From IMG/VR virus record IMGVR_UViG_641736224_000031: a DNA stretch of 42,289 bases; one strand, 5' to 3'. This stretch comes from a virus (taxonomy: Duplodnaviria > Heunggongvirae > Uroviricota > Caudoviricetes). The position numbers are program-made. Shown piece after piece: positions 18,001-24,000 of this stretch; within the stretch, counting starts at the first letter, position 1; the number at the start of each line of letters is the position of its first letter.

Positions 18001-21000
18001 AGCACCCGGAAAACACCGTGTTTTTTTGATCTCTGATAAACAATTTCACCATCGATCCCCCCGGTGTCCCAGCAGACACGGGAAATAGTCATTTCGGTGC
18101 CATCCGCATGGCGGTATTTTTTGTTGATCGCCGCATCCACACGTAACAGCGTCTCTTCCTCATCAGGACGCCCCATAATGATGATTTTATCCACCAGAAA
18201 GGCTTCCTCTCCCGGAGCCCATCCCCAGACATACATCTCAAAACGGTTTCGCTGCGAGTCAATGCCCGCCGTCAGATAAACCACCCGGGCAGGCACCGCC
18301 GCCGTGTAACGCACCACCTTATCCATCAGTACCTGGTGATCGAGTTTTTCGCCCACGGCCTCTTCCCAGGTCTCGCCCAGCGTGGTGTTCACAAAGGTTT
18401 TCAGGCCGTTGGGATCTTTCAGTGCATCCAGCCAGTCATAGACAATCTGTACCCAGGTGGTGAACGGACTGTACGCCGTCCAGATATGGAACATGATGGA
18501 GCGCGGCGGCGGAATTTCATCACCCCGGGCGCTGAAAAACGTCAGACCGTCACGGGTCCACATGCCCGTGTTTTCACAGATCCACCGCCCGTTGCTCTGG
18601 TCCAGTTCAGACTGATGGATCACGCAGCCATGATGTTCACAGAGGTAGAAAACACTTTCAGGGCTGTCCTTCTCCCATTTAAGCCCAAAAGGCGTGGACT
18701 CATCGCCAAATTTCAGATACTGCGCCTCCCCACAGTGCGGGCAGGGCACATAAAAACGCATAAAATGCGCCGACTCGTTAGCGGCTTTTTCGATCTGGCA
18801 GGTGCCTTTGATTTTAGGCGTCGAGCCGCGAATGGATTTTGGCCACACCGACCCCTCAATACGCTTATCCCCCAGCAGGGTTGGCGAGCCCTCTTTTTCG
18901 ACATCCGGCTCGAACGAGGAAAGTTCGTCATAGCAGACCACGTCAACGGATTTTTCACGGTAGTTTTTGGCGGCAGCGCCGCCCAGGCACCAGAAACCGA
19001 CGCCCGATGAAAAGCGTTTCAGCGTGAGAGTATTGTCACGATGTTTACGACCCAGCCATGGGGAAAGGTCTTTCAGGCATGGCACGTTCCGAATCGTCGC
19101 CTCCACGTGAGACTTCATAAAATCTTCAGCGGCAGAATCCGTGGGCTGAAAAAGCAGACTGTTTCGGGATTTATGCTCAATAAAATACCCGCCCCCCCCC
19201 CAGCAACATCTTTGTATAGCCAACACGGGCAGATTTAATCAGATTAACAGTGCGGATCTGATCATTCCCCATACTGTTCATGATGGCGATCTGGAATGGC
19301 AGCGTTTTCCATTCGCCCTCACCATATGAAGATTCTTTAGGCAGATAATAATTTTGATCAGCCCATTCAACTGGCGTCACCGGCAATGCCCTTATCAGGG
19401 GCTGTAATGCAGTTGTGACAGCGCTCATCATATTATTCAGTTGTTGCTCTGATATATTCATCAAGTAAATCCGGTAATTTATCCCCTGCCCGCGCACACT
19501 GATTTGCCCCCTTAGCAATAAGGGTTTTCAGATGGTCAAGATGGCGCGGTGTTAAATCAGGAAACTGTCGCTGCATGGATAAAGGGATGGAATCAAGCGT
19601 ACTGGATAACGCCATTGCCAGCTTACTGAGGGCAAAAATACAGAACCCGGTGTCAATCAGTTTTCCTTTTGACACCTCATTTTTTAACTGCTGTGTAACA
19701 GCCTGTTCTGCTGTCAGTTCCCATCTGGCAATAAGCAATTTCTCCTCATAGTCGTCTTCGCTATCGCCATCAGGCACATCGTTTTTACTTCTCCTCAGAT
19801 ACGATATGTAAAAATCGCGCCAGGCATCCAGATCCAGTTGCCCTCGCTTATTCGATATCGGGGCACCCGGCAATTTCTGCAATCTGCGAAGCTGGCGATC
19901 GGTCAGACTTAAATGCCTGGCAACTTCAGTCTGCGTAGCCACTCCTCACCTCGCAAAAACTCTCACCTCACAATCACAACAAAACCGGTCATGTCCGGTT
20001 TACATGTCTGTTTTTTGTTCATGTCCGGCTCACAGAAGACCTGTTTTTATATTTTTCATATAGTTAACTTGAAGAGAAACCGGACATGGATCCCGGAAAA
20101 TTTTCATAAATAGCGAAAACCCGCGAGGTCGCCGCCCCGTAACCTGTCGGATCGCCGGAAAGGACCCGCAAAATGATAATAATTATCATCTACATGTCAC
20201 AACGTGCATCTACGCCATCAAACCACGTCAAATAATTAATTATGACGCAGGTATCGTATTAATTGATCTGCATCAACTTAACGTAAAAACAACTTCAGAC
20301 AATACAAATCAGCGACACTGAATACGGGGCAACCTCATGTCAACGAAGAACAGAACCCGCAGAACAACAACCCGCAACATCCGCTTTCCTAACCAAATGA
20401 TTGAACAAATTAACATCGCTCTTGATCAGAAAGGTTCAGGTAATTTTTCAGCGTGGGTTATTGAAGCCTGCAGAAGAAGATTAATTAATGAAAAACATGC
20501 TCAATTTGTACCCAACAAAGACAAACACGACCAGAGCACCTGTTCAGACAGGTTTACTTAAACGACTTATATATGACACAAAAAGCGACCACTAAAGTCG
20601 CTTTTTCTTATGGTAACAGGCAATAACGCTCTCAGATATTTTTTAGCATTTTTTTGACCGCGCGTTTCCGGACGTATTCTGTTCTCCTGTCCCTTTATAT
20701 CGTCGGAATACCCGCCGCTCTTCAAATCCCATTCCCAACTCAGAATGTAGTCTGTTGACCGCTTGTTTTATTTCTGTCAGGTTCATCGGTGAAACCGGAG
20801 TCCGGCGCGCCTTACGCAAACACTCTGCTCGTTTCTGTGCCGCCACTTTTCTTTTCTGGTCATCACTTAGCTGTACCATCACTTTTGCCCATCGTTCAGC
20901 TGCTCTCCGGTACAGTCCTTTTTTCTCCAGACATTCTGCCAGGTGATCATGTAGCATAAGTGACCTCCGATTATCTACAGACTGCTATCCTGAATTTACC

Positions 21001-24000
21001 TTCCTTTAATGAAATAACAATAAAAAATAAATCACAGAAAAACAACAAAACAACACACAAAAAAACCAAATAATAAACCCAAATAATCACCTTATTTTAT
21101 TATTTTTTGAGAGAGCTATTACTGAACAAAAAACGCTGACTATATACTCAAAACCAAACAACTATTCTGCCAATCAGGTATAATGGCAACACAAGGAATT
21201 ACCGTGTTTTTGCCTTCTCTGCCCATACAATACGGACATATACTTCATACTCTATTGTAATATTTCCATCCATGCGAACAACTTCATTTATCTGTAAATA
21301 ATATTCAAAATATTTATCACAGAAATCGTTTTTGGCCATGAACTGAGCACACTATAAAGTCCGGAACTGACTCTTTGTTAAATTACCTTAACGTTACCAG
21401 TAACACCTTCATAACAAAACATCACGGTATACACTGGGTACGGATATATTCCTGTGCTCCTTCCAGTTGCTTCTGCATTGCCATCAGCCGTTCTCTGAGG
21501 ATGAAATAATCCCGTTCAGCGGCTTCTGCCAGTCGGGGACCGGTTGCATTATCCACGCCGGAGGTGATGGGGGCTTTACGCAAGGAGCCTGGACAGTTGG
21601 CGTTGATGCGCAGGCGCTTACGACCAGCGGCAACATCAGCACGCAGAGTTTCATTTTCAGCTCTCGCATCGGCTAATTCCCTCGAGTATCTGGCATCAAG
21701 TGCAGCGACATCACGCTGGCGTACCTGCATATCAGTAATTGTCACGTTCGCCAGCTTCAGCTCACTGGCTTTTTTATCGCGTTGCGCTTTGTAGGTAATG
21801 GCGTTATCGCGGTAATGATTCAGCCCCAGACTAAGCACACCACAGGCTACCAGCAGGACAATAATCACCACACACAGAACACGGTTCATATCCCCCTCAC
21901 CCCACCAGCCATGACAAAGTTAAGACGCGCCAGGCAGTGGAAAAGCAAATAGCAACCAGCATTAGTGAAAATGAAATGCCGACGATTACACAGAGGATCT
22001 TCGCCAGCGTTATGAGCTTGTCTGACATGCTTAATCCTCTTCACGATTTCAACGCAATGACCAGTTTTGCCAGCCCATACAGCATCGGAGACACAGCAAT
22101 ACCGACCGCCACCCACTTAATAGCAAAAGCCAGCGCTCTGCTGACGTCATCAGTTACAGGCGCTTTCAGTTCAAGGCCGTTTTTCATAGTCAATCTCAAC
22201 AGAATTCGTTTATACTTTCCCATGTTCTCCCTTGCCTTACTCAAGGTCAGAAACACAAAACCCCGTTTGCGGCCAACAAACGGGGTTTTACTTTTATTCA
22301 CTTAGTTTTTGCCAGTTCGCAGGATTTCGTGTTATCCGCCAGTGTGAGCAAACCGCATTTTTCAGCAAAATATTCTGCTTATCTGTCAATTCCCCAGCAC
22401 GCCAGCGCGCTCTCCTGGTCACGCCGTGAAACCTGACCGTAGCAGTTGTTTGAGCGAATACGGCAGTCTCTGCCACCGTCCTTAATCCACCAGCGAATCG
22501 CCTCACACGCTCCCCTGCGATCACCTGCATTAATTCGTCTGTAAAACGTCGACGGGAAACACTTACCGGGACCAATGTTGTACGGACAGAATGACGCGAT
22601 CCCCGCTTTCTGGGGTTCGGTCAGCGGTACTTTAATATTGCGCTCCACCCACTCCAGCGCCTTATCACGTTCAATGGCGTTAACCTGGTCGCATTTTTCC
22701 TTCGACAACTTCATGCCCGGAACGACAGGTTTACCATCCACCAGGATGGCACCGCGGCAGATGGTCCAGATACCCGCACCATCACGGTATGCCGTGGTGT
22801 GGTTACCTTCTTTTTCGTCAAGAAACTGGTCGAGGATTTCAGGCGCAGACGCCCCTGCACCAATCAGCGCCAGAACGGCAGCCGACAGGCCGTATCTGAT
22901 TTTTGCGTTCATGGATATTTATCAGGGTTTATCGATTTCAAATCCCTGGATATGTTAAGTCTTCAGGCCAGCGGTGGAGTCTTCAGAGAACCCGTAATTA
23001 TTCCCGGTAGTTTTCCTCTGTAGGTTATCAACACATCCTGCGCCTCTAAAATTACGGGGCGCTTTTCCGGCAACGGACCATCCCCTTCACATAACCCGGC
23101 AGCAACATCCATGAAAAACTGCTTCGCCTGCTTTTTCGCCTCAGCTTCGTAAAACTCCAGCGTGGCACCTTCAGTACGGTCAAGACTAATCGCCACATCT
23201 GGCAACAACAGTGACGGATACCCACCAATTTCCGGTGCCACAGTAACAGTAATCTTATCCGGGTAATTATTTATCCCTTTAACACCCAGTTCGTATTTTT
23301 TCTTCATCGCTTTACTCCCCCCGCGCCGCCTTACGACGGTCCTCTCTGATTTTGAAATACAGGTTAGTCAGATACGTCAGCAGGCCAAACAGCAGACTCC
23401 CCAGCACACCGATTGCCACCCACTGGGACGGAGAGACTTTGTCCAGCAGCTGCAGTAACCAGTATCCCGTCCCCACCGCTGACGTGGTGTATGACACACC
23501 TGTTGTGATTTTTTCCATCTGATGTATGTCTCCGTCACCGCCGACAGAAAATGAAAGTAAAGGAAAACAAAAAGCCGCCAGTGTCGCCCACTGACGGCCA
23601 ACGCCGGGAGCCGTGATTATGGCATTCAGGCTCTGCTAAAAATGCCAGATAACATTCCGGCTCCCCCCCCTGATTCAGGTTATAAATGACACAATATCTT
23701 GACAACACCCATCACTGTCTGTCAGAAAATGTACTGCCAGATATAAGTATCATGTGAAACCCAACTATCCTTCTTAGCCAGTATGAACCGCCCCGGAAAT
23801 CCTGGAGACTAAACTCCCTGAGAAAGAGGTAAACAGGATGACTAAAAATACTCGTTTTTCCCCCGAAGTCCGTCAGCGGGCGATTCGTATGGTTCTGGAA
23901 AGTCAGGATGAATATGACTCACAGTGGGCGGCAATTTGTTCCATTGCCCCAAAGATTGGCTGTACGCCGGAGACTCTGCGTGTCTGGGTTCGCCAGCATG

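Follow-up and report, generated by a model that had tools for sequence, protein, structure and literature searches.

Altogether, our analysis supports a model, which we consider likely, whereby pchC and its own upstream control region form a moron of about 960 bp that sits in the slot between the lysis gene Rz and the cohesive-end site (cos) of a lambdoid prophage and is subject to three layers of control. The DNA in question, hereafter the window, is the whole 42,289-nt stretch of the IMG/VR virus record IMGVR_UViG_641736224_000031 (Caudoviricetes); aligned over its full length (1-42289), it is 99.1% identical to prophage Sp14 of Escherichia coli O157:H7 Sakai, and this alignment identifies it as a lambdoid E. 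coli O157:H7 prophage of the Sp14 type. In our model, transcription of pchC would start somewhere in the 464-bp AT-rich spacer between its ATG and the Rz stop codon under the control of host regulators, as transferred from the paralogs pchA and pchB; Q-antiterminated late transcription would, from the anatomy of the locus, also read pchC upon prophage induction; and a predicted hairpin that pairs the Shine-Dalgarno (SD) sequence and the AUG with codons 3-6 would gate translation. The feature is real but already known, in that the role of the Pch proteins, the host regulators of pchA and pchB, and the mechanism of the small RNA (sRNA) DicF are all published. Pch proteins are prophage-borne switches for the type III secretion system that the LEE (locus of enterocyte effacement) encodes in enterohaemorrhagic E. 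coli (EHEC), and their control matters for virulence.

The gene itself is a 104-aa open reading frame (ORF) that matches the Pfam PerC profile PF06069 end to end (E 2.2e-44; residues 1-89 cover profile positions 1-89 of 90; score 150.1 bits, cut-off 22.6) and that RefSeq labels 'PerC family transcriptional regulator'. Moreover, 941 nt covering the 3' end of Rz, the spacer, the gene and the terminator behind it are identical to Sakai pchC (ECs_2737, prophage Sp14), with no difference from the Rz 3' end to the terminator, and 921 bases around the locus recur at 100% identity in many O157:H7 genomes. The PerC match and this identity therefore show that the gene call in a first-pass annotation of this DNA, a PerC-family regulator, was correct, and they sharpen it: by sequence identity, the gene is pchC itself, a prophage-borne activator of the O157:H7 attachment genes. 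The coding sequence (CDS) has a guanine-plus-cytosine (GC) fraction of 0.44-0.50. Iyoda and Watanabe (2004) reportedly classed pchA, pchB and pchC of O157:H7 Sakai as group 1 PerC homologs. Group 1 Pch proteins activate LEE1/ler (PMC4764244, PMC5931665), and cloned PchC raised ler::lacZ activity about 5-fold, to 7783 from 1577 Miller units (PMC5931665). PerC of enteropathogenic E. coli, encoded by perABC on plasmid pEAF, has the Pfam family and the LEE1/ler target in common with pchC (PMC4332760, PMC4764244), but perC stands third in a plasmid operon and lacks a long spacer of its own, whereas pchC is a stand-alone prophage cassette with 464 bp of AT-rich DNA upstream.

The limits of this cassette are marked by the surrounding phage genes. 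Read along the minus strand, the holin and endolysin genes come first, followed by Rz/Rz1, the 464-bp gap and the 104-aa ORF, beyond which lie the convergent ylcI on the plus strand, cosN and the terminase genes. Homology to lambda-like phages extends from cos through most of ylcI (20093-20484) and is found again in Rz (21444-21826), these flanks matching at 83-96%; in phage Turner, homology ends at window position 20484 and restarts at 21444, and Bor lies between these points. Because homology breaks there and a Bor module fills the interval, 20485-21443 can be read as a single accessory cassette in the Rz-cos moron slot, and the definition of its boundaries is a modest addition of this work. 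The boundary at 20485 falls inside ylcI, the last ~25 codons of which differ from those of lambda-like phages. The terminator in the cassette consists of two perfectly complementary 10-nt arms (AAAAAGCGAC/GTCGCTTTTT) around a 7-nt loop and, as RNA, folds into an 11-pair stem with a 5-nt loop (minimum free energy -17.3 kcal/mol, z -2.2); five U close the 3' arm of the stem, and GUGU comes next. The terminator is unchanged across the three Sakai paralogs. The view that the gene is a moron holds up, in that the cassette stands in place of the bor module, differs in composition, the GC fraction being 0.317 in the spacer and 0.525 in the window as a whole, and possesses a terminator of its own. Three of four marks of a moron are thus present (insertion between conserved phage genes, composition and terminator); as to the fourth, an own promoter, the spacer contains no sigma-70-like site above chance. 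The bor moron of phage lambda occupies the same slot between Rz and ylcI/cos and, like pchC, is an accessory gene absent from related phages. In Turner, bor is on the strand opposite Rz and the terminase genes and is therefore antisense to late transcription, whereas pchC is sense and could be co-transcribed with the late genes.

The spacer is the compositional extreme of the window, in agreement with the earlier description of some 460 bp of AT-rich, A/C-repetitive, low-complexity DNA between the pch gene and Rz. It is 68% AT and corresponds to 2,690,788-2,691,251 in Sakai; only 0.05% of all 464-bp windows are equally AT-rich, and every one of these overlaps it. The lowest trinucleotide entropy of the window lies in the 100 nt around 21005-21110, and A+C in 60-nt windows reaches 0.92 solely at 21011-21033, with values of at least 0.9 nowhere else in the window. 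The string aacaacaaaacaacacacaaaaaaaccaaataataaaccc, which the first-pass annotation had quoted, is located at 21043-21082 and is composed of degenerate short tandem repeats (AAAACAAC x3.6 and AAAACCAAATAAT x2).

For the first layer of control, the evidence comes from the paralogs. Lrp-butyrate acts on the pchA promoter region, and PpchA has been reused as a native, Lrp-butyrate-responsive promoter in a biosensor (PMC7279287), while LrhA activates pchA and pchB (PMC4456613, PMC13012123). We infer that the spacer is a control region insofar as the literature treats its pchA/pchB equivalent as the native promoter. The proposal that this DNA is a long control region stands to the extent of that use in publications (PMC7279287, PMC4456613, PMC13012123), whereas its further elements, H-NS silencing and an sRNA or attenuator, found no support, as set out below. 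A literature search for a published transcription start in the spacer interval returned none.

The distribution of the spacer bears on whether it does anything for pchC. Among 5426 complete E. coli genomes, 673 carry it, at 1878 places in all, full-length each time, at 86% identity or more and never annotated; the wider block containing pch is found at 1901 places in 674 genomes, an essentially identical set. Among 82 pch loci collected by protein similarity from IMG/VR and species-representative genomes, 78 have the block in full, Rz 3' end and terminator included, and two exceptions with a disrupted distal spacer retain at least ~390 bp of it together with pch. In one of these two IMG/VR copies (L045, ~1970), ISEc8 is inserted at about window position 21403; in the other (L068, ~2110), the spacer is fused to a tRNA region by a deletion with its junction at about window position 21347. 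Neither copy has lost pch or the proximal spacer. The pchA and pchB loci of Sakai have the block in common with the window copy at 94-97%. An Escherichia albertii Pch homolog (L007 2471-2791; 90% identity) is located near fliE, in no recognisable prophage, and only the last ~70 nt before its ATG are common to it and the EHEC cassette, the DNA further upstream being likewise AT-rich. One could read most of the spacer as functionless filler, a decayed gene remnant plus a slippage-prone repeat, with only the last ~70-100 bp mattering for pchC, as the E. albertii homolog would suggest; such a reading also accounts for the T/G-rich tract, which varies more than any other part of the cassette and lacks 40 nt in one allele, for the absence of promoter or regulator motifs above chance in the spacer and for spacer RNA that is not unusually structured. 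It sits poorly, however, with the distal 310 bp, which are 94-97% identical from paralog to paralog and go together with pch at essentially all places in the 673 genomes, with the at least ~390 bp of spacer retained by copies that lack Rz through insertion sequence (IS) insertion or deletion, and with the literature, where the DNA upstream of pchA serves as a regulated promoter (PMC7279287). We consider it unlikely and prefer the view that the spacer is a regulatory region of pchC.

The second layer of control concerns prophage induction. From Q to pchC, every gene is on the minus strand, pchC follows directly after S-R-Rz, and Rz is immediately upstream of the spacer on the shared strand; a scan placed no terminator-like site between Rz and pchC. 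Because pchC is sense in the late operon and no terminator follows Rz, Q-antiterminated late transcription should enter pchC. In SNP-resolved RNA-seq of strain PA20 under sulfamethoxazole-trimethoprim (SMX-TM), a data set in which reads of pch paralogs multi-map, pchC had a log2 fold change (log2FC) of 2.99 (about 8-fold; 91 reads per kilobase per million), pchB of 1.74 (not significant) and pchA of -0.33 (PMC5931665), and an Rz1 paralog was co-induced (log2FC 3.07). Late read-through probably explains this SOS induction of pchC. In prophage Sp4 of Sakai (L004 23366-26376), the block made up of holin, endolysin, Rz and pchA is flanked by IS629 and ISEc8 and inverted with respect to Q, the tRNAs and the terminase; pchA would therefore be uncoupled from the late promoter pR', and the inversion fits the missing SOS induction of pchA in the published data. 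This structural explanation for an SOS induction specific to pchC and not pchA is new, although a minor addition. If confirmed, late read-through would tie prophage induction directly to the activation of adhesion genes. Within the window, an IS1203/IS629 element with an ALIL frameshift pseudoknot (24119-24235, plus strand) lies between the late promoter region and the holin gene.

Such coupling is familiar from Shiga toxin (Stx) phages, in which stx is expressed from the late operon in a Q/pR'-dependent manner and a virulence gene is thus raised by prophage induction. If read-through is right, pchC resembles stx as a sense virulence gene in the late operon that is raised by induction. The positions differ, with stx between Q and S and pchC after Rz, and, unlike stx, pchC also appears, as judged from the pchA and pchB data, to be under host control through the DNA upstream of it while the lysogen is uninduced.

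The third layer of control would act on translation. RNAfold predicts a hairpin in which the SD (AGGU, 20963-20966, within GGAGG at 20964-20968) pairs with an anti-SD (ACCU, 20941-20944) in codons 3-6, and the identical hairpin is returned for five different combinations of 5' and 3' transcript ends. The predicted probability of the AUG being unpaired is 0.06 in the -45..+45 and -100..+60 folds and, per base, 0.05-0.27 across the five constructs; in the -150..+60 construct, the SD is paired with a probability of 0.84-0.89. The hairpin region occurs as nine distinct sequences in total. Melson and Kendall (2019) reportedly described a DicF-activated mRNA of the pchA type. In pchA mRNA, the SD is hidden by an anti-SD in the first codons and is opened by DicF (PMC7769764, PMC7873438, PMC13138055), and reviews place this action at the anti-SD inside the coding sequence and not in the 460-bp tract (PMC7769764, PMC13138055). 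As predicted, the pchC hairpin matches this published mechanism (PMC7769764).

The first-pass annotation had pointed to a DicF-like sRNA on the same prophage that might pair with the spacer; a gene is indeed present, but as a shortened 39-nt variant in which the first 10 nt and the terminator are as in the canonical DicF of Sp11 (L002 46581) and the middle is absent. It was found only by reading the sequence; Rfam, searched over the whole window at the gathering threshold and over 36500-39000, gives no DicF match at that threshold or at E<=1. The suggested pairing with the spacer was not borne out, since RNAduplex, run with both the canonical and the short form of DicF on the spacer and a further 90 nt, gave chance-level results. 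At the coding sequence, the 5' end of the short DicF can pair with pchC +9..+25 (7 bp, a 4-nt bulge and 4 bp; -9.9 kcal/mol), which 17% of random 40-mers equal, and canonical DicF pairs with +1..+40 in a manner that 30% of random 40-mers match. The corresponding anti-SD region of the E. albertii homolog (UCACCAGG) is predicted to form 10-11 uninterrupted base pairs with DicF. Just past the DicF-like gene, a weak match to the sRNA family STnc100 (29.5 bits, below gathering; 37879-38097, plus strand) overlaps the dicB leader.

Variation among pch copies is concentrated in the T/G-rich tract (A/C-rich on the plus strand) that lies 45-155 nt upstream of the ATG. Among 52 distinct pch copies, the share of variable alignment columns is 69% in the tract at 21001-21110, 20-26% in the distal spacer, 13% in the Rz 3' end and 2% in the pch CDS, the last value being biased low because the loci were picked by protein identity. 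Consistently, the tract diverges from that of pchC by 8% in pchA and by 31% in pchB of Sakai (30.6% for pchB), where the Rz 3' end, CDS and terminator of pchB and pchC differ by 0-0.6%. Its alleles include changes in T-run length and a 40-nt deletion (L013). Because the tract is so variable while its flanks are conserved, the low-complexity tract is where the paralogs diverged; that it is a divergence hotspot is a further new but minor addition. It is slippage-prone promoter-proximal or leader DNA, strongly diverged between paralogs, that probably contributes to their differing expression levels.

A leader segment within the tract, AGGUGAUUAU (21083-21092), is complementary to the anti-SD segment at 20941-20950 and resembles the 5' end of DicF. 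It is tempting to speculate, with little confidence, that the tract at 21001-21110 is a fast-evolving, slippage-prone tuning element that sets the expression level and regulatory input of each paralog and that, in a read-through transcript, AGGUGAUUAU opens the SD in cis in the way that DicF does; if true, prophage induction would switch PchC translation on without an sRNA. Some constructs give this pairing the same energy as the SD hairpin; it vanishes once the fold includes the full CDS, belongs to a set of 15 inverted pairs at chance level and is missing in pchB-type alleles. The same data enter into a different reading of the spacer, namely that it is a separate regulatory RNA (an sRNA, an attenuator or a riboswitch-like leader) or chiefly an H-NS nucleation site that silences pchC. 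The ability of the leader at 21083-21092 to pair with the anti-SD and an extreme AT content, a known preference of H-NS, speak for it, but that pairing has the weaknesses just described, and searches for the hallmarks of such elements returned little. Rfam, run on 20000-22000 at E<=5 and on the whole window at the gathering threshold, gave nothing credible in the spacer but chance hits; no terminator-like site was found within the spacer; and spacer RNA folds no better than its shuffles (z -0.47). The suggestion that the spacer might hold an sRNA or attenuator thus found no backing. As for H-NS, the high-affinity motif (TCGATAAATT-like) has no site in the spacer with one mismatch or fewer and one site with two or fewer, against 1.3 expected from shuffled sequence; no H-NS chromatin immunoprecipitation value for the interval was found in the text or supplements of PMC4764244. 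The idea of H-NS silencing, for which AT content is the sole basis, is accordingly neither supported nor refuted, with the motif at the level of shuffled DNA. We regard a separate RNA or an H-NS nucleation site as an improbable account of the spacer, more so than filler, and continue to favour a control region that belongs to pchC. Flanking inverted or direct repeats that might mark a mobile element were likewise limited to short, chance-level repeats.

The spacer had also been described as free of ORFs, which is not quite the case: it contains a 46-aa ORF with an ATG start that RefSeq does not annotate. Were this ORF a real small protein, the region would be an operon of two genes and not a long leader. 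Of 78 copies, 75 keep the ORF intact; its first 16 codons do not vary, save that two alleles differ in codon 1 (ATG to TTG, L017) or codon 2 (L038-type); and it forms its own PHROG family of unknown function, phrog_2157 (E 1e-35). On the other side, allele differences are six to eight non-synonymous to zero to two synonymous (about 7-8:1), start and stop are lost in L017 and frameshifts occur in L013 and L078, and no SD precedes the ATG. A set of 5.8 billion proteins holds no more than 10 relatives, each a hypothetical protein of E. coli or E. albertii and each inside the pch cassette, and searches of Pfam, NCBIfam and phages (by tblastn) found nothing outside the cassette. We therefore rejected the ORF as a likely gene on account of its non-synonymous excess, missing SD, disrupted alleles and want of a Pfam or NCBIfam match; by its pattern of variation it is probably non-coding, and a two-gene operon is very improbable.

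Several observations weigh against our model of a pchC cassette with three control layers. For host control, the direct evidence on LrhA and Lrp covers pchA and pchB and not pchC; consensus sites for H-NS, Lrp and LysR-type regulators are no commoner in the spacer than in shuffled spacer; and a promoter scan of the spacer gave one sigma-70-like site where 3.1 are expected, so that no promoter could be placed, the best score in a sigma-70 position weight matrix scan falling under the shuffled mean. For late read-through, the IS1203 between pR' and the holin gene could lower transcription into pchC, and strain PA20 carries a Sp4/Sp14 inversion, so its pchA context may differ from that in Sakai Sp4. 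For the translational layer, the hairpin prediction differs for the pchA allele, in which the anti-SD codons read CACGUG and not CACCUG as in pchC, and for the pchB allele, and the energies computed for DicF pairing do not exceed chance.

Table 1 Coordinates of pchC, its spacer and neighbouring features in the window.
Feature	Position	Strand	Remarks
pchC coding sequence, 104 aa, PerC family	20643-20957	-	Pfam PF06069; 100% identical to Sakai ECs_2737
AT-rich spacer, 464 bp, pch ATG to Rz stop	20958-21421	-	Putative pchC upstream regulatory region and 5' leader
T/G-rich low-complexity tract	21001-21110	-	Variation hotspot among pch paralogs
Predicted SD/AUG hairpin	20924-20981	-	RNAfold
46-aa orphan ORF	21199-21339	-	Likely not coding
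Whole pch cassette, ~960 bp (ylcI 3' end, terminator, pchC, spacer)	20485-21443	-	Replaces bor module
Bidirectional intrinsic terminator between convergent pchC and ylcI	20580-20606	both	Hairpin and U run
Rz (i-spanin)	21422-21889	-	Pfam Phage_lysis, E 2e-46; final lysis gene of late operon
Rz1, embedded in Rz	21484-21669	-	Annotation
ylcI (DUF3950 gene)	20337-20561	+	Convergent to pchC
cosN aggtcgccgccc	20126-20137		
Shortened DicF-like sRNA gene, 39 nt, UUUCUGGUGAUUCGGCGGAAAUGGAUAUCCGCCCUUUUU	37848-37886	+	Upstream of dicB

Further from the cassette, the minus strand of the window carries three prophage tRNA genes (Arg, Arg and Ile; 28066-28312), a strong match to STnc100 (100.8 bits; 27120-27292) downstream of this tRNA cluster and a hok/sok module (31228-31402).

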